From positions 1,209,420 through 1,273,419 of the forward strand of contig OZ244898.1 of assembly GCA_965221585.1 (NCBI GenBank): 64,000 nucleotides of DNA, read 5' to 3'. The stretch comes from Candidatus Aldehydirespiratoraceae bacterium. Its GTDB lineage: Bacteria; Actinomycetota; Acidimicrobiia; Acidimicrobiales; Aldehydirespiratoraceae. The notes under the pieces are model-generated. The model was not told the DNA's origin. It saw nothing but the letters and a program-made list of their open reading frames with translations, and searched no databases. The translations under genes were made by a program, and so were the position numbers. Shown here piece after piece: positions 4,103 to 61,845 of the stretch; position 1 is the stretch's first letter; every line of letters starts with the position of its first letter.

Positions 4103-5011
4103 GTGCCCAGAGCGTTTTGGAGCGGAAGCATCAGCTTCGGACTGGTCAACATTCCGGTGCGCCTGTTCGCCGCGGTCCGACGCAAGACCGTCCGGTTCAA
4201 CCAGATCGACTCGTCCACGGGAGCGCGCGTCAAACAGAAACTGGTCTCGTCGGAGGACGGTGAAGAAGTCCCCAGGGAACGGATAGTGAAGGGGTATTCG
4301 CTCGAAGACGGCAGCTACGTGACCATCTCCGAAGAAGAGATGACAGCGCTCGACCCAGAGATGGCACGAACCATCAACATTGACGAGTTCATCGACCTGG
4401 TCGACATCGACCCGATCTTCTACGACAACGCCTACTATCTGGCCCCGGCCGATCAGGCCGCGAAGCCTTACAAACTGTTGGCCACCGCCATGGAGCAGGC
4501 GGGAAAGGTCGGAATCTGCCATTTCGTGATGCGTTCAAAACGCTATCTGGCCGCGGTGCGGCCTGTCGAAGGGCGGCTGTTGTTGTCGACGATGCTGTAT
4601 CACGACGAGATCGTCGACCACTCTGAGATAGACGGCTTCGACCTGCTGGCGGAGACTGACATCGACGAGCGGGAACAGGCGATGGCCGAACAGTTGATAG
4701 CGACGCTCAATGCGACCTTCGACCCGACCCGCCACAACGACACCTACCGGGAAGCGGTTCTGGAATTGATCGAACGCAAAGCCGCGGGGGAGCGGAGCGA
4801 CGATCTGCTGAGAGCGCCCGCTCCCAGCTCCGACAAGGTCATTGATCTGATGGCGGCCCTCGAAGCCTCCGTGAACGAGGCCAAGAAATCGCGTCAACGC
4901 TCGTCGTCCGAGACCAAGGCTGGAACCAAAATCGGAACCAAGAACAGAAGCAAGGGCGGCAAACGCAAACCCGCAGACGTTTCGGTTGAGCCGTCCGAAC
5001 GCTCGGCGTGA
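4103..5011 (+). CDS. ku: Non-homologous end-joining protein Ku
   Basis: Has the typical bacterial Ku N-terminus MPRAFWSGSISFGLVNIPVRLFAA and a Lys-rich basic C-terminal tail. A LigD-type polymerase gene follows 10 nt downstream. Confidence 0.95.
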   Translation: MPRAFWSGSISFGLVNIPVRLFAAVRRKTVRFNQIDSSTGARVKQKLVSSEDGEEVPRERIVKGYSLEDGSYVTISEEEMTALDPEMARTINIDEFIDLVDIDPIFYDNAYYLAPADQAAKPYKLLATAMEQAGKVGICHFVMRSKRYLAAVRPVEGRLLLSTMLYHDEIVDHSEIDGFDLLAETDIDEREQAMAEQLIATLNATFDPTRHNDTYREAVLELIERKAAGERSDDLLRAPAPSSDKVIDLMAALEASVNEAKKSRQRSSSETKAGTKIGTKNRSKGGKRKPADVSVEPSERSA

Positions 5012-5020
5012 CCTCGGCCG

Positions 5021-5929
5021 ATGGCTGAGGCAGAGCGCGTCCAGGTCACAGTCGGCGGCCACCGGTTGTCGGTCAGCAACCTCGACAAGGTCCTGTATCC
5101 GTTGGTCGGGTTCACCAAGGCCCAGGTGATCGACTACTACGTCAGGGTCGCGCCGTGGCTGCTGCCACACATCGAGGATCGCGGCGTCACCCTGCGACGT
5201 TGGCCTGACGGGGTCACAGCGCAGTCCTTCTTCGAGAAGCGCTGTCCTTCTCATCGGCCCGGTTGGGTGAGCACCTGTACCGGTCCCGGCGACCGCCGGG
5301 GCGGCATCGACTACTGCCGACTGGACTCAGTCGCGGCGCTGGCTTGGACCGCGAATCTGGCAGCGCTTGAGATTCACTCACCTATGGCTCGCTGCGGCGA
5401 CATCGAGTCACCGTCAATGCTCGTGTTCGATCTCGACCCGGGTGATCCGGCGACGATCGTCGAGTGCTGCCAGGTGGCTCTGGAGATCCAGTCGGTGTTG
5501 AAGAGCGTGGATCTGGTGGCCTGCGCCAAGAGTTCCGGAAACAAGGGTCTGCAACTGTATGTGCCACTCAATTCACCGCACACGCATGCAGACGCGTCCG
5601 ATTTCGCCTTGGCTGTGGCGCAGGTCCTCGAACAGAGATCCCCGGATTCCATCTTGTCCAACATGAACCGCAAGCGCCGCGCCGGCAAGGTCTTCATCGA
5701 CTGGAGCCAGAACTCGCGCCACAAGACGACGATCGCCCCCTATTCCCTGCGTGGTGGTGACCGGCCGACGGTGTCGACTCCGCTGAGCTGGGACGAGGTT
5801 GCTGACGGCGCCGATGGCGAGCCGCTCATCTTTGAAGCCGCCGAGGTGCTCGAACGCGTCGAGTCTCTGGGTGATCTGTTTGCCGACACCATCACGGTGC
5901 AGCAGCAACTCCCGACCGCGGGCGCCTGA
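5021..5929 (+). CDS. ligD: Stand-alone LigD polymerase/primase (PolDom) NHEJ protein
   Basis: Motifs LSNLDKVLYP...TKAQVIDYY, FFEKR and LVFDLDPG...KSSGNKGLQLYVPL match the LigD primase-polymerase domain. No ligase domain is attached. Confidence 0.9.
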   Translation: MAEAERVQVTVGGHRLSVSNLDKVLYPLVGFTKAQVIDYYVRVAPWLLPHIEDRGVTLRRWPDGVTAQSFFEKRCPSHRPGWVSTCTGPGDRRGGIDYCRLDSVAALAWTANLAALEIHSPMARCGDIESPSMLVFDLDPGDPATIVECCQVALEIQSVLKSVDLVACAKSSGNKGLQLYVPLNSPHTHADASDFALAVAQVLEQRSPDSILSNMNRKRRAGKVFIDWSQNSRHKTTIAPYSLRGGDRPTVSTPLSWDEVADGADGEPLIFEAAEVLERVESLGDLFADTITVQQQLPTAGA

Positions 5930-6416: not shown

Positions 6417-7040
6417 GTGGCATCTGTGGCGGACAAGATTACGCAGGCGGTTACCGAGCGCGGACCGGGGGCATGGGTATGCACCCCCGGGGACTTTCTG
6501 GGCCTGGGGAGCCGTGAGGCGGTCGACCAGGCACTGTCGCGCTTGACCAAGGCCGGCAAGCTGCGCCGGATCGGGCATGGCCTGTATGACATGCCGCGGT
6601 TCAGCAGCGTGCTGGGCCGGTCTGCGCCGGCCGACATGGACGCCGTCGTGGCGGCGTTGGCGAGGCGGGACGGCGTGCGGATCATGGCCGACGGGCTGGT
6701 AGCCGCTAATCGGCTGGGCCTCACCAATGCGGTGCCGGCAAGGGCCAGCTACCTCACCGACGGCGCCTCCAGGACGCTTCGGATCGACGGCAGAACCGTT
6801 CGGTTCCGACACGGCAGGCCCAGAATCATGCAGTGGGCCGGCAGGCCAGCAGCACCGGTGGTTCAGGCGCTGGACTGGCTCGGCCCCGACGCCGCCGCCG
6901 ATGCCCAGGTCGTCGAGATGCTCAGGCGCAGCCTTCCTGTTGACGTGAAGCACGATCTCAAGCAGAACATAAGCGACGTCCCCGGCTGGGCGGCACCGCT
7001 CGTGCGCAGCATCGTGGCCGATCAAAAAGCCGTCGCGTGA
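6417..7040 (+). CDS. abiEi: AbiEi-family type IV toxin-antitoxin antitoxin (wHTH)
   Basis: Has a wHTH-like region SREAVDQALSRLTKAGKLRRIGHGLY. It overlaps the downstream AbiEii gene by 4 nt (GTGA). GTG 6417 is preceded by GGGAGGG; the ORF is open from 6300. Confidence 0.75.
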   Translation: MASVADKITQAVTERGPGAWVCTPGDFLGLGSREAVDQALSRLTKAGKLRRIGHGLYDMPRFSSVLGRSAPADMDAVVAALARRDGVRIMADGLVAANRLGLTNAVPARASYLTDGASRTLRIDGRTVRFRHGRPRIMQWAGRPAAPVVQALDWLGPDAAADAQVVEMLRRSLPVDVKHDLKQNISDVPGWAAPLVRSIVADQKAVA

Positions 7041-8074
7041 ACGCAGCATTCGCAGCGTTCCTCGGCCTCGCTGAGCAAGACCGGCGCGACGTAATCGAAT
7101 CGGCCGCTGGCCGTCTTGACACGCTGCCCACCTATGTCGAAAAGGACCTCTGGGTCTGCGTCGTTCTGGACGCGATCTTCAACGGACTGCCCGATGGCCA
7201 CCCTCGCCTGCTCTTCAAGGGCGGAACCTCGCTGTCGAAGGTGTTCAGGCTGATCGACCGGTTCTCCGAAGACATCGATCTCGTCGTGTACCGAGACGAC
7301 TTGGGTTTCGGAGGAGATCGAGACCCGACCGCGGCGAGCGCCCTGTCGAAGAAAAAGCGAGCTGCGCTCTTCAAGACTCTCACCAGCGAGTGCAGCAGTT
7401 ACGTACTCGGGGACTTGCGGACAGCGTTGGCTGACGCGATCGGTGAGGCCAGCGAAGAATGCCTCATCGTCCCTAACACCGACGATCCGCAGTCGCTGTT
7501 GGTTGAGTACCCCACGCTGTACCCGGTCAGCGACACTGCCTACGTCGCGCCGAGCGTGAAGATCGAAGCCGGCGCGAGATCGGCTCTCGATCCCAACCAG
7601 TCCAGCGGCGTCACGGCATTCATTGACGACGAACTGCACAACGCCTCGCTCGACGTAGCCAACATCAGAGTGCTCTCGCCGCAGAGGACATACTGGGAAA
7701 AGCTGCTGATCCTGCACGGCGCCCACTGCGGGCACCGAGACCAAGGGCGAATCCCGGAGGACAGGAACCGGATCTCACGCCACTACTACGACGCCGCAAT
7801 GATCACGGCGACCGAGACGGGCGCGTCGGCCCTGTCAGACCTTGACCTTCTTGACGCAGTACGCAGCCACAACCTCATGGCCTTCAAGCAAGCATGGAAG
7901 CGCTTCGAAGAGGCCACCCCCGGTTCGGTGAAACTGGTGCCCCAACCCGGACTGCGCGAAGCAATCGAACGGGACTATGCGGCCATGCAGAGCATGATCC
8001 TCGGCGATGCTCCCGAATTCGAATGGATCAACGAACGACTGCAGGACGCCGAGAACGTCATCAATCACAGCTAG
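7037..8074 (+). CDS. abiEii: AbiEii/AbiGii-family nucleotidyltransferase toxin (DUF1814)
   Basis: The N-terminal region VEKDLWVCVVLDAIF...LLFKGGTSLSKVFRLIDRFSEDIDLVV is the characteristic AbiEii NTase core. Confidence 0.9.
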   Translation: MNAAFAAFLGLAEQDRRDVIESAAGRLDTLPTYVEKDLWVCVVLDAIFNGLPDGHPRLLFKGGTSLSKVFRLIDRFSEDIDLVVYRDDLGFGGDRDPTAASALSKKKRAALFKTLTSECSSYVLGDLRTALADAIGEASEECLIVPNTDDPQSLLVEYPTLYPVSDTAYVAPSVKIEAGARSALDPNQSSGVTAFIDDELHNASLDVANIRVLSPQRTYWEKLLILHGAHCGHRDQGRIPEDRNRISRHYYDAAMITATETGASALSDLDLLDAVRSHNLMAFKQAWKRFEEATPGSVKLVPQPGLREAIERDYAAMQSMILGDAPEFEWINERLQDAENVINHS

Positions 8075-15346: not shown

Positions 15347-18139
15347 TCAGCCTGCGGGTCTCGAGGCGGGTTTGCGCCTGCGCTGCCTCGCCGGCTTCTC
15401 GGCCAGCTGTCCTGTCATCGTGATGTAGCGGTCGAACAGGACTCTGAGGCGTGCTTGGTCCTGTTCGAGGTTGGAGCGGGGTGCGAAGGCAGCGTCGACT
15501 GCTTTGTCGAGCGCGTCGTGGGAGCCGACGAGGTTCTTCGGCATGGACAGGGGGTTGTAGAGGTCGGCGAGGGTCGCTTCGGGAAACTCCGCGCGGGCGT
15601 CGAGCACCGCTTTGGCGCGGCCCTCGATGCGCTGTTGCTGCTGAGCGGTCAGGTTCGGGAACGGGAACGTGTTGTATACGCTGCCCGGCGAGATCCTGGG
15701 GTCGCTTTTGAGGCGGCCGCCGACGGTGCGGGTCCACAGGGTGAACATCGCCGATTGGAGCACTCCGAACAGCCACAGCGGGGCGCTTTCTATGGTGTAG
15801 AGCTGGTTGGTGGCGATGTCGTCGGCGCCGAGGTAGGCCATGGGGGCGACCCGGTAGTTCTCGCTGCTCACTTCGGGGACGGCGAGGTATCCGCCGGCGG
15901 GCTGCTTGTTGTTCCAGAACAGCGCCGGTGTGGCAGCCGTTTCCTGTGTCTGGGCGCTGTCCGAGGACAAGCGGTGGTCGCGGACCTTGGCGAGCCGCTC
16001 TGTCAGCTCTGGCCATTGTCTGAGCTCGGTGGGCGTGGCTTCTGCGAGCCACAAGCACCAGCGCTCCACGCCTTGGAGGAGTTCTTTGGACCCGTACAGG
16101 CTGCGGACGAACTTCTTTCTGAGGTCTTTTGGCAGAGCGCTGCGTTCTTTGGGGGTGAGTATTAGGTTGCCGCCGTCATTCGGTTTGCTCCCGATGCTCA
16201 GCTCGGGGACGCCTCCGAGCGGGGTGCTCCGTTTCGCCACGCCGACCATCGGGCTGTCGACGAGGTAGACGTTGATCTCCCGGGCGGACTCCTCGATGCC
16301 TTCGGCGTGCAGATCCGGGTAGAAGTACAGCCTGCGCTTCCGTCCGGGAGTTTTGGCGAAGCCCACGATCACGACGTGCACGTGGGCTCTGCCGCGGGCT
16401 TCGCTGGTCCACGCGAATGTGCGGTGGGCGAATTCGATGGTCGCTCCGCGCCGCTCCAACAGAGAGTGCAGTGCCGACGCCTGCTCACCCTGGGTGATCG
16501 AGTTAGTGGACACGAAAGCACAGCGGGTGCGCGGGCCGATGTAGTCGACAGCCTTCGCGTACCAGCCCAGCACGTAGTCGATCCGCTTGGGGGTGCCTGT
16601 GGGCATGACCCGCTCCATGTCGGCTTTCTGCTCGTCTGTTCGGAGCCGGAACCCGACAAAGGGCGGGTTGCCGTACACGTAGTCGGCCCGGTCGGATGGC
16701 AGGAGGCTGTTCCAGTCTGTGTCCAGCGCGTTGGCGATCAAGATGTGTGGGCTGGACTGGATCGGGAACCGGACGAAGTATCGGCCGAACTCGGACGACG
16801 CCTCCCGGTTGGCGATGTGGTCGGCAAGGTAGAGCGCCGTGGAAGCGATGCGAGCCGGGAACTCCTCGCTCTCGATGCCGTAGAACTGCGAAACGTTCAC
16901 CTTCAACATCAGATCCAAGTCCATCACTCGCTGGCCAGGCTGCTCACCTGCCGTGCCCCGGCGAGTGGCGCGCTTTTTGGAGATCGCCTTGAGAGTCTCG
17001 GTTTCCAGCCGGCGTAACTCCCGGTAGGCGATTACGAGGAAGTTCCCGCATCCCGCCGCCGGGTCGAAGAACGTCAAAGAGGCGAGTTTCGCGTGGAACG
17101 CCTCCAGCTTCGGCAGGCTGTCGGCCCGGGCCAGTTCCTTTTCGAGGTCCTCGAGGAACAGAGGGCGGATGACCCGCATGATGTTCTCCTCGGTCGTGTA
17201 GTGGGCGCCGATCTCGCGGCGCTCCGCCGGGGTCATCACCTCTTGGAACAAAGAGCCGAAGATCGCCGGTGAGATCGCCGCCCAGTTGAACCTGCACACC
17301 TCTAGCAGCGCCTTTCGGGCCGCGGAAGTGCAGTGAGCTATCGGTATCTGCTCGGCGAACAGGTCGCCGTTGATGTAGGCGAAATGCGCCAGGTGGTCGT
17401 CGATGGCGGGGCTGCGCTGGTCTGCTGGTTTGTCGAGCTCTTGGAACAGCGTGGCGATGCGGGCGCCGAGGTCCTTGCCGTCTTGGCGGCTCTGCGCCAC
17501 GTAGGAGGCGAACAGGCCGCTTTCCCACACTGCTGTGCTGTCCGCAAAGACGCAGAACAACACCCTCGTCAACCACACACGCCTTGCGTGATCGTCGTAG
17601 CTGGCGCGTTCTAGCTCATCGTGGAGGTCGCGCATCAGCATCGTCGCGGCGAGATTCAGCTCCTCCGTCGAGGCAAAGTCGGCCTTTTGGTCGTGCCCGG
17701 CCAACCACCAGAACCGCTCGACGTTGTCGGGAAGCTCGCTGAGGGAGAACACGCCCTCGGCGCGGGTATCGTAGTCGTGGAACTTGAAGCGGGCGAAGTC
17801 GCAAGCCACAGCCATTCTCGGGGCCTCCTCGTCGGGGATCGAAGGCAGATAGTCGAGCAGCTGCCTCATGGCTCCCTCCAAGTCCTTGCCCGCCGACTTG
17901 TGCTCCACCGCCAGTTTCTGGGGCACGAACAGGTCTATCCGCCCTTTCTCTCCCGTCGACAGCCGCTCCGCGTGCTTCTCGTACTGGCCCACCAACTTGC
18001 GGTCGATGTCGAAGATGCCGAAGAACTCGTCCCAGAATGAGTGCGACTCCGCCCGCTCGCTCTCGGCGCCCTCCCATCTTTTGGAGAATCGTGCGGCCGC
18101 ATCTCGGATCTCATCCTTCGTCACCGCAACAGCCTCCAT
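15347..18139 (-). CDS. MmeI-family Type IIL (IIG) restriction-modification enzyme, with nuclease and N6-adenine methyltransferase in one polypeptide
   Basis: Appears collinear with MmeI as I recall its sequence; no alignment was run. Shared blocks include FSKRWEGA, the PD-ExK-like IDLF...LAVEHKSAGKDL, and LFCVFADSTAVWE. Further blocks are ISPAIFGSLFQEVM, GAHYTTEENI, FFDPAAGCGNFLV, YGNPPFVG, AFVSTNSITQGEQ and VGGRLKSDPRISPGSVYNTFPFP. Confidence 0.92.
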   Translation of the reverse strand: MEAVAVTKDEIRDAAARFSKRWEGAESERAESHSFWDEFFGIFDIDRKLVGQYEKHAERLSTGEKGRIDLFVPQKLAVEHKSAGKDLEGAMRQLLDYLPSIPDEEAPRMAVACDFARFKFHDYDTRAEGVFSLSELPDNVERFWWLAGHDQKADFASTEELNLAATMLMRDLHDELERASYDDHARRVWLTRVLFCVFADSTAVWESGLFASYVAQSRQDGKDLGARIATLFQELDKPADQRSPAIDDHLAHFAYINGDLFAEQIPIAHCTSAARKALLEVCRFNWAAISPAIFGSLFQEVMTPAERREIGAHYTTEENIMRVIRPLFLEDLEKELARADSLPKLEAFHAKLASLTFFDPAAGCGNFLVIAYRELRRLETETLKAISKKRATRRGTAGEQPGQRVMDLDLMLKVNVSQFYGIESEEFPARIASTALYLADHIANREASSEFGRYFVRFPIQSSPHILIANALDTDWNSLLPSDRADYVYGNPPFVGFRLRTDEQKADMERVMPTGTPKRIDYVLGWYAKAVDYIGPRTRCAFVSTNSITQGEQASALHSLLERRGATIEFAHRTFAWTSEARGRAHVHVVIVGFAKTPGRKRRLYFYPDLHAEGIEESAREINVYLVDSPMVGVAKRSTPLGGVPELSIGSKPNDGGNLILTPKERSALPKDLRKKFVRSLYGSKELLQGVERWCLWLAEATPTELRQWPELTERLAKVRDHRLSSDSAQTQETAATPALFWNNKQPAGGYLAVPEVSSENYRVAPMAYLGADDIATNQLYTIESAPLWLFGVLQSAMFTLWTRTVGGRLKSDPRISPGSVYNTFPFPNLTAQQQQRIEGRAKAVLDARAEFPEATLADLYNPLSMPKNLVGSHDALDKAVDAAFAPRSNLEQDQARLRVLFDRYITMTGQLAEKPARQRRRKPASRPAG

Positions 18140-52355: not shown

Positions 52356-52446
52356 CTATAGGCTCCACTGGTCGCTGGCCGTATGGCTAACGGCGATGTT
52401 CAAGGCCTCCCAGAGGCTTCGGATCAAGCCACGAAAGGCACTAACA

Positions 52447-53760
52447 ATGAGTAACGACTGGGGTTTCGAAACCCGCCAAATCCATGCCGGGCAGGAGGCC
52501 GATCCGACTACGGGTGCGCGCGCCGTGCCGATATATCAGACCACGGCGTACCAGTTCCGCGACACCGACCACGCCAAGAACCTGTTCGCCTTGGCCGAGA
52601 TAGGCAACATCTACACCCGGATAATGAACCCGACCCAGGCCGTGGTCGAAGCTCGCCTCGCCAGCCTCGAAGGCGGCACCGACACAGCGGTGGGCATTCC
52701 CGGCGCACTTGCGCTGGCGTCCGGCCAGGCTGCGGAGACCCTGGCGATTCTGAACCTCGCCGAGTCCGGGGATCACATCGTGTCGGCCTCGGCCCTTTAC
52801 GGCGGCACCTACAACCTCTTCCATTACACGCTGCCGAAGATGGGGATCACCTGCACGTTCGTTGACGACGCCGACGATGCCGACGCCTGGCAGGCGGCTA
52901 CGCAGCCCAACACCAAGGCCTACTACTGCGAGTCGATCGGCAACCCGATGAACAATGTCGTCGACATCGCCAAAGTCGCGGAGATCGCCCACGCCAACAA
53001 CGTGCCGTTGATCGTCGACAACACAGTGGCCACTCCTTATCTGATACGCCCCATCGAGCACGGAGCGGACATCGTCGTCCATTCCGCGACGAAGTTCATC
53101 GGTGGCCACGGCACCGCAATCGCGGGAGCGATCGTGGACGGAGGCACTTTCGACTTCGCCGCATCCGGGAAGCATCCGATGTTCACCGAGCCGGATCCCA
53201 GCTATCACGGTCTGGCCTTCTGGCCGGCACTCGGCCCGGGTTCCTACATCATCAAGGCCCGGGTGCAGCTGCTGCGCGATATCGGCGCGGCCATCTCGCC
53301 GGTGAACTCGTTCCTGCTGCTGCAAGGCCTCGAGACGCTGAGTCTGCGGATGGAACGTCACTTCTCCAACGCCAATGCGGTCGTTGAGTACCTCGCGGGC
53401 CACGATCAGGTTGAATCGGTCGCCTTCGCCGGACTGCCCGACTCTCCGTGGCACGCTGTCGCCAACGAGCTCGGCGGCGGAAGGGGCTACGGCTCGGTTC
53501 CCGCCTTTGTGATCAAGGGTGGTCTCGAAGCGGGCAAGAAGTTCGTGGAGGCCCTCGAACTGCACAGCCACCTGGCCAACATCGGCGACGTTCGCAGCCT
53601 GGTGATCCAGCCTGCAGCCACCACCCACTCCCAGTTGACCCCGGAAGAACAGGAATCCACGGGCGTCACCCCGGGTCAGGTGAGGCTGTCGGTGGGACTG
53701 GAGTCGATCGACGACATCATCGCGGATCTCGACAAGGGTTTCGCGGCGGCCGCTTCGTAA
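52447..53760 (+). CDS. metY: O-acetylhomoserine aminocarboxypropyltransferase (sulfhydrylase)
   Basis: FETRQIHAGQEADPTTGARAVPIYQTTAYQF and the PLP-Lys context HSATKFIGGHG. ATG 52447 was chosen within the ORF that opens at 52396. Confidence 0.92.
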   Translation: MSNDWGFETRQIHAGQEADPTTGARAVPIYQTTAYQFRDTDHAKNLFALAEIGNIYTRIMNPTQAVVEARLASLEGGTDTAVGIPGALALASGQAAETLAILNLAESGDHIVSASALYGGTYNLFHYTLPKMGITCTFVDDADDADAWQAATQPNTKAYYCESIGNPMNNVVDIAKVAEIAHANNVPLIVDNTVATPYLIRPIEHGADIVVHSATKFIGGHGTAIAGAIVDGGTFDFAASGKHPMFTEPDPSYHGLAFWPALGPGSYIIKARVQLLRDIGAAISPVNSFLLLQGLETLSLRMERHFSNANAVVEYLAGHDQVESVAFAGLPDSPWHAVANELGGGRGYGSVPAFVIKGGLEAGKKFVEALELHSHLANIGDVRSLVIQPAATTHSQLTPEEQESTGVTPGQVRLSVGLESIDDIIADLDKGFAAAAS

Positions 53761-53779
53761 ACGACGGAGGTGACAATCG

Positions 53780-54241
53780 ATGCTGAGTCAAGGCGAGGTA
53801 GTAGACAACTTCAGCTTGAGTGACCAACACGGCAACTCGGTGAGGTTGGACGAACTGGTCGCAACTGGGCCTTTGGTCCTGTTCTTCTACCTGCGAACCA
53901 ACACGGTCGGTTGAACCCAGGTCAGCTGCACCTTCCGTGATCTGAAGGCGGAGTTCGCTGAACTCAACGCCTCCAGAGTGGGGGTCTGCGCTGATTCGGT
54001 GAATCGGCAGAGAAAATTCGATGAGAAGCACACGCTGGGTTTCCCGCTGCTGTCAGACCGCGGCGGGAAGGTGGCGCGTCTGTTCGGAGTCAAACGCTTC
54101 GCGCCGCTCCCGCCGAAGCGGACCACGTTCGTGATCGACCAGGACCGGCGGATTGTCCGGGCGATCTGCAGCGAGTCGGACATGGCTGTTCACACCGACG
54201 AGGCTCTGGCGGCGTTGCGAGAACTCCAAAGCGGCGCCTGA
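53780..54241 (+). CDS. bcp: Bcp-type peroxiredoxin with in-frame TGA (53912-53914) at the peroxidatic Cys position: candidate selenoprotein, or else a nonsense pseudogene
   Basis: An ATG with GGAGG 10 nt upstream opens a 153-codon frame. It reads ...LVLFFYLRTNTVG-TGA-TQVSCTFRD...KFDEKHTLGFPLLSD...KRTTFVIDQDRRI. The TGA aligns with Cys45 and the downstream C with Cys50 of E. coli Bcp (CTTQAC). The conserved Thr and Arg are retained. Confidence 0.6.
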
Positions 54242-54263: not shown

Positions 54264-54827
54264 TCAGGGTTCGTCAATCCAGGCGGGTGCGCGGTCGAGG
54301 AGGAACTCGGCGACCTTCGAGCAGCGGTCGAGAACGTCGCACAAGACGTCTCGTCCATAGAAGATCCTCGCAAGCTCCACTTGGACCCGGGCGACGATGC
54401 TGATCGCGCGGACCGGGGCGTCGGTGACCGCTGCGAAGCTGTCGAGGGCGCTCACCTCCAGCGGCAATTCGGTGTTGCCGATGCCGGCGAGGTCGGTCGC
54501 CAGAATCAACAGATCCGGTGCTGCCGGCAGCGGTGGGAGGGCGAAGCTGATTGTCAACGGCAGGCGAATGTCGTCGGACGCTTCTTCGCCATCGTCCAAA
54601 CCGAGCAGCTCATCCTCGAACATGATCAGGGCTCGAGCGCCGGCCTCGAGCGCGATGTGCATGTCCAGCGGGCCGTCGCACGCCTGATCGGGGTGCAGGT
54701 CGACCTCCCAGATCTGCCGGTTGGTGTATGTCTCGACGAAATGCCGTTCGTCGTGAACATGGAATCCGTGTTCGACGACATGATCCTTGAGATCGGCAAC
54801 GAATCCCTGTAGGTCGATTACTGCCAT
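54264..54827 (-). CDS. Hypothetical protein (188 aa)
   Basis: The ORF has protein-like composition from MAVIDLQGFVADLK. The upstream extension to 55058 looks non-coding. Confidence 0.5.
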   Translation of the reverse strand: MAVIDLQGFVADLKDHVVEHGFHVHDERHFVETYTNRQIWEVDLHPDQACDGPLDMHIALEAGARALIMFEDELLGLDDGEEASDDIRLPLTISFALPPLPAAPDLLILATDLAGIGNTELPLEVSALDSFAAVTDAPVRAISIVARVQVELARIFYGRDVLCDVLDRCSKVAEFLLDRAPAWIDEP

Positions 54828-55832: not shown

Positions 55833-56939
55833 ATGAACAAGAACAGTAAATTGCTGCGTTTGCTCGCGGTGTTATTTGCCATCGTCCTTATCGCCGCTGC
55901 TTGTGGCGACGATGACGACTCTGGCGATGACGCCCCGGAGGAAACGGCTGGCGACGACATGGCCGAGGGCGGCGATGATATGGCCGAGGACGAAGGCGGA
56001 CGCCTCGCCGCCGTCATCGACCGCGGCTCAGTGAACTGCGGTGTCAATGACACGCTTCCTGGTTTCGGCAACATCGACGCGAACGGCAACAACGCCGGGT
56101 TCGACATCGACTTCTGTCGGGTCGTGGCAGCCGCCGTGCTCGGCGACGCCGATGCGGTGAACTACACGCCTCTCGACGCATCGCAGCGCTTCCCGACACT
56201 GCAGTCCGGTGAGATCGACCTGTTGGTCCGCAACACCACCTGGACAGCCAGCCGCGACGGCAACGAGCAGGCAAACTTCATGTTCACGACATTCTTCGAC
56301 GGCCAGGGTTTCATGGTCCGCGATGACAGCACGATCCAGTCGATCGAGGACATGGCCAACACCAACATCTGCGTGCTTCAGGGCACCACGACGCTGCTGA
56401 ACCTCAACGCGGTGCTCGGCGACAGGGGCGTCCCCTTCACGGCCGTCGAGTTCCAGTCGAACGACGAGCTCCAGCCGGCCTTCGTTGCCGGCCAGTGCGA
56501 AGTCTGGACCACGGATGCCTCCGGTTTGGCAGCATTCTCGGCGACGCTCGACGTAGGCACGCGCGTGCTCAGTGAGATCATCTCCAAGGAGCCGCTCGGA
56601 CCTGTCGTGCCCGACGGCGACACCGAATGGGCGCAGGTTGTCAACTGGGCCACGATGGCAACGGTGCAGGCCGAAGAATTCGGCATCAGCTCCGCCAACC
56701 TCAGCGACTTCATGGACAGCGAGAGCACCAACATCCGACTCTTCCTCGGTCTTCCCATCGAGGGAGAAGTGGTTGAGGTTGGTCTTGGCCTGCCCGCTGA
56801 CTTTGCGCAGAACATCATCAGCCAGGTCGGCAACTACGGCGAGATCTACGAGCGCAACCTCGCGCCCCTGGGCCTCGAGCGCGGTCCCAACGCGTTGTGG
56901 ACCGACGGCGGCCTCATGTACGTTCCGCCCTTCAGGTAA
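55833..56939 (+). CDS. aapJ: General L-amino-acid ABC transporter substrate-binding lipoprotein (AapJ/BztA-like)
   Basis: Has the lipoprotein signal LLAVLFAIVLIAAACGDDD and family-3 binding-protein blocks (GFDIDFCRVVAAAVLGDA, LLVRNTTWT). It is followed by aapQMP-like genes. Confidence 0.85.
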   Translation: MNKNSKLLRLLAVLFAIVLIAAACGDDDDSGDDAPEETAGDDMAEGGDDMAEDEGGRLAAVIDRGSVNCGVNDTLPGFGNIDANGNNAGFDIDFCRVVAAAVLGDADAVNYTPLDASQRFPTLQSGEIDLLVRNTTWTASRDGNEQANFMFTTFFDGQGFMVRDDSTIQSIEDMANTNICVLQGTTTLLNLNAVLGDRGVPFTAVEFQSNDELQPAFVAGQCEVWTTDASGLAAFSATLDVGTRVLSEIISKEPLGPVVPDGDTEWAQVVNWATMATVQAEEFGISSANLSDFMDSESTNIRLFLGLPIEGEVVEVGLGLPADFAQNIISQVGNYGEIYERNLAPLGLERGPNALWTDGGLMYVPPFR

Positions 56940-60744: not shown

Positions 60745-61845
60745 ATGGAGGGAAGGGTGCCCAGACTGTTTGCTAGGTCGTGTGCGTTGATCTGCCTGGC
60801 GGGGCTGGTCGTCGCTGCCTGCGGCACAGGCAGTTCCGGCGACCGAGGCGCGGACGATCCGGCTGAGTCAACCGACCAGCCGACAGCTGTGTCCGTGGCC
60901 TCCGGACGCCTCGACGTCGTCCAGGAGCGCGGCTCGCTCAACTGTGGCGTCAACGACACGATTCCTGGTTTCGGCATAGTCAATCCCGATGGCGACAACC
61001 AAGGTTTCGACGTCGACTTCTGTCGGGTCGTGGCAGCCGCCGTGCTGGGCGACGCGGAGGCCGTCAACTATGTCGCCCTCGACTCGAGCACACGGTTCCC
61101 GACACTGCAATCAGGACAGATCGACGTGTTGATCCGCAACACCACTTGAACCGCCAGCCGTGACGGCAACGAGCAGGCGAACTTCCTGTCGACAACGTTC
61201 TTCGACGGTCAAGACTTCATGGTTCGCGCCGACAGTTCGATTCTTTCGGTCGCCGACATGTCGAACACTTCCATCTGTGTGCTGCAGGGCTCCACCACGC
61301 TGCTGAACCTCAACTCCTTGTTCAACGACCTGGATCTGCCCTTCACGCCGGTTGAATTCGTTGCCAACGATGAGCTCCAACCGGCGTTCGTGGCCGGGCA
61401 GTGCGAGGTCTGGACCTCCGACGCCTCCCAGTTGGCTGCTTTCTCGGCAACGCTTCAGGTACCGACCCGCATTCTCGGCGAGGTCATCTCCAAGGAGCCT
61501 CTCGGTCCGGTGGTATCCGACGGTGACACCCAATGGGCTCAGGTTGTGAACTGGGCCACGATGGCGACCGTGCAGGCGGAAGAGTTCGGTATCACCTCGG
61601 CCAATCTCGGCAACTTCCTGGAGAGCGAGAACACCAACATCCGCTTGTTCCTGGGGTTGCCGATCGAGGGAGAAGTCGTCGAGGTCGGACTGGGTCTCCC
61701 GGCTGATTTCGCCCAGAGGATCATCAGCCAGGTCGGCAACTATGGCGAGATTTACGAGCGCAATCTGGCCCCCTTGGGCCTCGAACGCGGCCCCAACGCG
61801 CTGTGGACCGACGGTGGTTTGATGTACTCTCCGCCGTTTAGATGA
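60745..61845 (+). pseudogene. Second AapJ-like binding-protein gene, interrupted by a single in-frame TGA (61147-61149) replacing Trp
   Basis: ORFs 60745-61149 and 61219-61845 are in the same frame. The paralogue reads LLVRNTTWTASRDGNEQANF, whereas this copy reads VLIRNTT-TGA-TASRDGNEQANF. The C-terminal 110 aa are about 90% identical to aapJ by eye. Confidence 0.8.

Follow-up and report, generated by a model that had tools for sequence, protein, structure and literature searches.

A candidate selenocysteine form of a BCP/PrxQ peroxiredoxin in Acidimicrobiales, with a bipartite RNA element downstream of its in-frame UGA

Peroxiredoxins that carry selenocysteine (Sec, U) within a TxxU motif are an established selenoprotein family, which a 2026 review lists with a citation of the PrxU work of 2001 (PMC13188914); one survey found them in 78 organisms (PMC5029168) and a Global Ocean Sampling survey counted 253 sequences (PMC2398784). 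Insertion of Sec at UGA in bacteria is modelled by the bacterial selenocysteine insertion sequence (bSECIS) consensus, in which an apical loop of 3-9 nt with a G in its first two positions lies 16-37 nt from the UGA, with a folding energy of -7.5 kcal/mol or lower, and a subset of selenoprotein genes falls outside this consensus (PMC13188914). Here we describe a peroxiredoxin gene, bcp, with an in-frame TGA at the codon for the peroxidatic cysteine, in a 64,000-nt stretch of the Candidatus Aldehydirespiratoraceae bacterium contig OZ244898.1 (assembly GCA_965221585.1, positions 1,209,420 to 1,273,419 of the forward strand; hereafter the window, with coordinates counted from its first nucleotide). 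The predicted product resembles both PrxU of Eubacterium acidaminophilum (Sohling et al. 2001) and the peroxiredoxin selenoproteins of marine metagenomes in having the AhpC/TSA fold (PF00578) with Sec for the peroxidatic Cys in T-x-x-U, and its distribution resembles that of the 'Prx, TxxU' family, which likewise has many Cys homologues and occurs in marine and host-associated bacteria. It differs from PrxU in its branch, BCP/PrxQ (BcpB-like), and in its Acidimicrobiales origin. A Sec form of a peroxiredoxin is thus an already known enzyme type, and the most interesting aspect of this locus is its non-canonical bipartite recoding element.

The bcp open reading frame (ORF; 53780-54241, + strand) is complete over 153 codons when its internal TGA is read through, an architecture that the orthologues share. 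It is preceded by a Shine-Dalgarno-like GGAGG (53766-53770, +), read directly from the sequence 9 nt 5' of the ATG, and ends in a TGA terminator (54239-54241, +). The translation opens with MLSQ, passes through TNTVG, the single internal stop, TQVSCTFRD and KRTTFVID, and closes with SGA. With Cys written at codon 45, the product matched Pfam AhpC/TSA (PF00578; E 6.4e-29, residues 5-126) as well as Redoxin, and the solved peroxiredoxin 5epf_A, which we take to be Mycobacterium tuberculosis BcpB, aligned over residues 3-152 (E 3.9e-41), with codon 45 falling on the Cys of its TPGCT. That structure is the closest one solved and shares with the window protein the segments TPGCT...C...FRDL, FPLLSD and KRTTFVID; the closest named homologues are likewise annotated 'putative peroxidoxin BcpB'. 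In contrast to the window gene, 5epf_A and actinobacterial BcpB have Cys (TGC/TGT) at the peroxidatic position and are without the downstream RNA structure described below. NCBIfam scores remained below cut-off for PRK09437 (Bcp; 80.5 bits against 140), PerredPrxQDein (72.6 against 260) and peroxi_PrxU (NF040737, the Clostridia Sec-peroxiredoxin; 23.3 against 270). Judged by its predicted sequence, the product is a divergent BcpB-like branch of BCP/PrxQ and not an E. coli Bcp equivalog, and it is clearly not a PrxU orthologue.

The in-frame TGA (codon 45; 53912-53914, +) occupies the peroxidatic position of the motif and is the putative Sec codon. Thr42 of the PxxxTxxC/U motif (53903-53905, +) and the active-site Arg114 (54119-54121, +), which aligns within KRTTFVID of 5epf_A, are both invariant in the alignment. 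Cys50 (53927-53929, +), five residues past the putative Sec codon, is the putative resolving Cys, and both the window and 28 of 30 scored sequences keep it. An initial annotation made from the window sequence had described a Bcp frame interrupted once, on the peroxidatic Cys, with Thr, resolving Cys, Arg and ribosome-binding site intact, and all of this could be read again in the sequence, the Pfam match and the 5epf_A alignment; it had also remarked that the motif Pro is replaced by Leu (codon 38; 53891-53893, +), as the translation bears out, so that the motif keeps Thr42 and the catalytic position and lacks its Pro, whereas 5epf_A retains it. Within the TGA forms the residue varies: the window shares Leu with L015 and L016, the next relatives have Gln, and the more distant TGA forms keep YPKAMTPG ahead of the TGA, which makes the substitution of this universally conserved Pro an unusual active-site change within one Sec-using subgroup (window, L001, L003, L006 and L015-L025). 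Separately, the resolving Cys is gone from two TGA forms (L033:1589-1690 and L037:1718-1819), which read SRHF for SCHF and have FSE in place of FRD.

When a collection of 5.8 billion proteins was searched, full-length Cys-type homologues of at most about 60% identity were returned, together with nameless C-terminal fragments of 85-87 aa that were 65-99% identical. The contigs bearing these fragments are syntenic with the window, with the shared order Cys_Met_Meta_PP, 44-aa ORF, 85-aa ORF, a 187-aa unknown on the other strand, Inositol_P and SBP_bac_3, and in each of them the gene, once read through a TGA that stands at the same codon, specifies an intact peroxiredoxin. Scanning one genome per species revealed the TGA form in 25 genomes, with products 52-90% identical to that of the window; these genomes carry the labels Acidimicrobiales, Acidimicrobiaceae, Ca. 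Aldehydirespiratoraceae or Ca. Microthrix, and several are sponge metagenome-assembled genomes (MAGs) of Ca. Aldehydirespiratoraceae. A further 23 TGA forms, and about 55 close Cys forms, came from a scan of metagenomes for which Cys forms served as seeds. Codon 45 was TGA in 51/51 distinct orthologues and never TAA or TAG, over protein identities of about 50-90% and often with the same gene order. The alignment proposed in the initial annotation thus returned, besides the recurrent TGA with a conserved structure different from the hairpin first suggested, a Cys codon in the same column of all 89 distinct Cys homologues (70 TGC, 19 TGT), and its argument that a chance nonsense change is unlikely is strengthened by the recurrence. 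A neighbour-joining tree groups the TGA forms, with a single Cys form among them. One Acidimicrobiales-type TGA-bcp with its usual neighbouring tRNA-Val (L031, CAXMSE010000107.1) was found in a MAG labelled 'uncultured Gammaproteobacteria bacterium', a label that is probably a binning error.

Past the TGA, the frame remains open for 104-111 codons in all 51 TGA forms. Pairwise dN/dS was 0.07-0.58 over the 30 codons before the TGA and 0.09-0.40 over the codons after it, where the initial annotation had named relaxed selection as a finding that would speak against Sec. The residues best conserved among peroxiredoxins (Thr+1, Ser+4, Cys+5, Phe+7, Arg+8 and Asp+9) fall in the stretch of 21 codons that separates the TGA from the earliest possible restart, where several residues are kept through synonymous variation, Leu+10 and Ala+19 by four codons each. 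TGA is meanwhile the usual terminator in this genome, ending 24 of 38 ORFs of at least 200 aa as well as 31 of the 51 TGA-form genes; reassignment of TGA in the genetic code is ruled out by this stop-codon usage. A generic scan for pairs of same-frame ORFs split by one stop was uninformative in sequence of 62% G+C. Because the UGA is conserved and selection acts at the protein level after it, the UGA must be translated, and we reasoned that it is almost certainly subject to translational recoding.

These comparisons also bear on two rival readings of the TGA. It is exceedingly improbable that bcp is an ordinary Cys-type gene that has become a pseudogene, or that its TGA is a sequencing or assembly error: gene callers do split bcp into pieces of 44 aa and 85-87 aa, and a second gene of the window (60745-61845) does carry a plain Trp-to-TGA change, but the same bcp TGA recurs in 51 distinct sequences, as little as about 50% identical, that were assembled independently and read with different sequencing technologies, ENA, JGI, NCBI and Logan assemblies could hardly all share one artefact, and the genes have no further stops or frameshifts, a dN/dS well below 1 past the TGA, and an RNA structure that co-evolves with it. 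That two small proteins are made instead, a 44-aa N-terminal peptide and an 85-87-aa C-terminal protein starting from a GTG at 53978 with untranslated RNA between them, is very improbable as well; automatic annotation reads two proteins in all relatives and the GTG is available, yet the 21 codons from TGA to GTG align residue for residue with the Cys-form proteins and 5epf_A, several of them being synonymously kept. Peroxiredoxins have a thioredoxin fold, and neither fragment alone would hold the complete fold or active site. At the level of sequence comparison, the data exclude the pseudogene, sequencing-error and split-gene readings.

Consensus structures were computed with RNAalifold on 26 and on 51 sequences, and revealed a bipartite element on the + strand downstream of the TGA. 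A small stem, H1, encloses the UGA itself (53908-53912 with 53924-53928; 94.5% paired, no pair changed on both sides). It is followed by a long imperfect hairpin (53928-53989) that starts 13 nt past the UGA, its base being formed by 53928-53929 with 53988-53989; within it lie H2 (53932-53938 with 53978-53984; 95% paired, three covarying pairs) and the apical H3, GAGUUC-GCU-GAACUC (53951-53956 with 53960-53965; 95% paired, two covarying pairs), which closes on the triloop 53957-53959. Directly 3' of the long hairpin stands H4, a hairpin of 7 bp (53991-53997 with 54001-54007) that is 96.6% paired with five of its seven pairs changed on both sides, and whose near-invariant triloop (53998-54000) is GGU in 47 of the 51 TGA forms. 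Over the 51 sequences, 95.5% of the cells of the bipartite structure pair and 10 pairs are changed on both sides, a result reached by 0 of 500 shuffles; when the 3' partners were slid by 1-3 columns, pairing fell to 25-56%. Folding of 53926-54010 gave exactly the two adjacent hairpins (-37.3 kcal/mol, z = -3.1), and the same fold was obtained for five of six divergent TGA-form orthologues (the minimum-energy fold of L106 differs) and for neither of two Cys-form controls.

The compensatory changes in this element reach into the protein. In H4 the covariation alters the product in a coupled way, Ser...Asn (UCG...AAU) being exchanged for Pro...Asp (CCG...GAU), with GAC...GGU variants too; in H2 of L033 and L037, where Phe-Arg-Asp has become Phe-Ser-Glu, a C-to-A change is offset by a G-to-U change 44 nt downstream (GUG to GUU), and the pair is kept. 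Out of 25 pairs, the TGA forms make 23.9 and the Cys forms 13.1 on average (the 50 closest Cys forms average 13.8, and none of them exceeds 20), the two groups differing with a Mann-Whitney p of 3e-23 that is not corrected for phylogeny. In the metagenome scan, 6-7 of the seven H4 pairs form in all 23 TGA forms, compared with at most five in the Cys forms.

Codon choice follows the same division. Asp is written GAT in 49/51 TGA forms and GAC in 49/55 Cys forms; Arg is CGG in 45/51 TGA forms against 5/55 Cys forms (AAG in 35 and CGC in 12 of the latter), Glu is GAA in 37/51 against 0/55, and Leu is CTC in 44/51 against 7/55. The H4 loop is GGU in 47/51 TGA forms versus 32/55 Cys forms. As far as the alignments can tell, it is synonymous choice at identical residues that builds the TGA-form structure. 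The Gly codon immediately before the TGA (53909-53911), which pairs within H1, is GGT in 41/51 TGA forms and in 5/55 Cys forms; pairing in H1, a codon-context effect of the P site on Sec insertion, or some other cause are candidate explanations of this preference.

The initial annotation had proposed a different SECIS-like hairpin, with GUCAGC (53921-53926) paired to GCUGAAC (53957-53963) below CCUUC (53931-53935) paired to GAAGG (53944-53948), and a loop beginning 21 nt past the UGA. Its coordinates are exact, but its role as a SECIS was rejected: only 63% of the cells of 53921-53963 are paired in 26 orthologues, a level matched by 40 of 500 shuffles, so that the hairpin is not conserved. Its upper stem contributes -4.0 kcal/mol in the window, and the hairpin as a whole is mutually exclusive with H2.

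Selenocysteine is the best-supported residue for codon 45 because the site is that of the peroxidatic Cys, the codon is always UGA, and Sec-containing peroxiredoxins with TxxU are established; we consider it likely that Sec is delivered there by a SelB-type mechanism. The proposal of a candidate Sec peroxiredoxin, already made in the initial annotation, gains from the conserved TGA/Cys pairing, the purifying selection on both sides of the TGA and the TGA-specific RNA structure. As indirect support, the machinery has been reported from the same class: all 84 complete genomes of Actinomarinales (Actinomarina), class Acidimicrobiia, are reported to have selA, selC, selD and a divergent selB (bioRxiv 10.64898/2026.04.03.716425), and a sponge Acidimicrobiia bin, bin76, encodes SelA, SelB and SelD, SelA and SelB being enriched in sponge symbionts generally (PMC5649159, Table S4). 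The searchable library yielded no paper on a Sec form of PrxQ/BCP specifically, and nothing specific on selenocysteine in Microthrix; the published 'Prx, TxxU' class may already contain PrxQ/BCP-type sequences.

The RNA element can be compared with the SECIS hairpins of E. coli fdhF and fdnG and with the bSECISearch model: in each, a stem-loop within the coding region follows closely on the Sec-UGA. The minimal E. coli SECIS hairpin begins about 11 nt from the UGA, and the hairpin base in both systems lies about 11-14 nt from the UGA, where it would sit at the mRNA entrance. The element also has a small apical loop starting with G and then G/U, in the form of the GGU of H4. We infer that it acts as a bacterial SECIS with a geometry outside the bSECIS consensus, in which H4 is the preferred candidate for SelB binding and the rod formed by the long hairpin would be a spacer or stabiliser, the GGU loop lying about 21 nt from the UGA if counted round the closed rod; alternatively, the long hairpin itself would be the SECIS, with stretched spacing. 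More tentatively, and with less than even probability, the element may represent a distinct class of bacterial SECIS, in which a 62-nt rod-like hairpin serves as spacer or ribosome-entrance element and the GGU triloop of the abutting 7-bp H4, 83 nt off in sequence and near in space, binds SelB. If true, this would accord with the divergent SelB reported for Acidimicrobiia, and SECIS-based selenoprotein finders would systematically miss such genes.

Several observations weigh against Sec insertion by this route. The long hairpin has an apical loop of variable sequence 42 nt past the UGA, beyond the 16-37 nt of the consensus, and H4, although its GGU loop conforms to the G[G/U] rule, presents that loop 83 nt downstream; simple hairpins within the canonical bSECIS limits were found in 4/51 TGA forms and 9/89 Cys forms, without enrichment. 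The comparisons between TGA and Cys groups are pseudo-replicated, since the TGA forms cluster in the tree and do not provide independent points, so that the independent evidence consists only of the compensatory changes within the TGA group. The Pro of PxxxTxxC is Leu in the source genome. Pfam, applied to the 20 largest ORFs in the first 48 kb of the window, showed no sel genes, and the six window tRNAs identified by ARAGORN include no tRNA-Sec, in agreement with the initial annotation; nor did ARAGORN find tRNA-Sec in 36 related loci and then in all 174 fetched loci, and selA, selB and selD were seen neither in the window nor in these loci, which total 1.78 Mb and are a small part of each genome. 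ARAGORN may miss tRNA-Sec of the 8/4 type. This type has been reported for Actinobacteria (PMC5389517). Rfam at gathering threshold returned only tRNAs for the window, and an E-value scan of 53850-54080 only irrelevant weak matches.

The unconventional geometry and the lack of Sec machinery in the sequence covered (window and 174 loci) would both suit a recoding of the UGA as something other than Sec, whether as Cys through a tRNA-Sec-like tRNA-Cys(UCA) and a SelB paralogue, or as Cys, Trp or Arg through structure-stimulated near-cognate readthrough; it is recoding and the RNA element that the data demonstrate, the identity of the inserted amino acid being inferred. A selC* tRNA-Cys(UCA) with SelB* and CysRS* exists in some bacteria, but such systems have been reported only in anaerobic Firmicutes, Thermodesulfobacteria, Nitrospirae and Proteobacteria, and always with complete Sec machinery (PMC5389517). 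A costly recoding for Cys alone would moreover be hard to explain when TGC does the same job in homologues (n=89), and an enzyme with Trp or Arg as its peroxidatic residue would be inactive, yet purifying selection acts on the protein as a whole; Sec at exactly this position, by comparison, is a known and widespread solution. Recoding to another residue is therefore improbable.

With Sec at codon 45, the product would be a full-length thioredoxin-dependent peroxiredoxin of about 17 kDa. With the UGA in the A site of the ribosome, the long hairpin would have its base, which lies 13 nt downstream, at the mRNA entrance. Either H4 with its GGU loop or the apex of that hairpin would then recruit SelB with GTP and Sec-tRNA(Sec), a complex that would outcompete release factor 2. 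In the finished enzyme the selenolate would attack the peroxide, and the resulting selenenic acid would be resolved by Cys50 and then reduced by thioredoxin.

Upstream of bcp by 19 nt lies a gene of the Cys_Met_Meta_PP family (52396-53760, +), syntenic in relatives, which from a reading of the family is presumably an O-acetylhomoserine sulfhydrylase and is probably co-transcribed with bcp. An ORF of 187-189 aa (54264-54827 in the window, -) is convergent with bcp and has the same position in L001-L010 and L012; no Pfam family is on record for it and no NCBIfam match was obtained. Further downstream are two copies of an SBP_bac_3 substrate-binding protein gene. The one at 60745-61845 is 72% identical to its paralogue at 55833-56939 and has TGA (61147-61149) where the paralogue has Trp; 14 related loci have one SBP_bac_3 copy only in the fetched flanks. 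It is most simply a lineage-specific duplicate turned pseudogene, or else it carries a strain-specific nonsense change. The initial annotation had raised this gene as a caveat, and the plain TGG-to-TGA change is indeed present, but it has no bearing on bcp, since the gene is an extra paralogue.

Elsewhere in the window, a repair and defence cluster comprises genes for Ku (4103-5011), the LigD primase-polymerase (5021-5929) and an AbiEii toxin (7037-8074), and a complete MmeI-type restriction-modification enzyme (15347-18139, -), with several adjacent ORFs of 405-491 aa that lack a Pfam family. A 574-aa ORF (125-1849, +) combines an LplA-B_cat lipoyl ligase/transferase domain with a radical-SAM lipoyl synthase, and appears to be a LipB-LipA fusion.

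In public gene calls, every TGA-form gene exists as nameless pieces of 44 aa and 85-97 aa (P0001, P0067, P0079, P0085, P0102, P0107 and P0111, as well as the loci), which amounts to systematic misannotation of an antioxidant enzyme that is widespread in marine, sponge-associated and wastewater Acidimicrobiales; with TGA-bcp split in this way, selenium dependence is under-reported in an abundant lineage. The 51 TGA and 89 Cys forms of one protein constitute a natural experiment that reveals which RNA features co-evolve with the putative Sec codon, and these features do not fit the standard bSECIS model of the prediction tools. With the UGA and about 95 nt, the locus provides a compact construct for studying signal recognition by an actinobacterial SelB. 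That peroxiredoxins can use Sec was already established, and these findings leave that picture unchanged.

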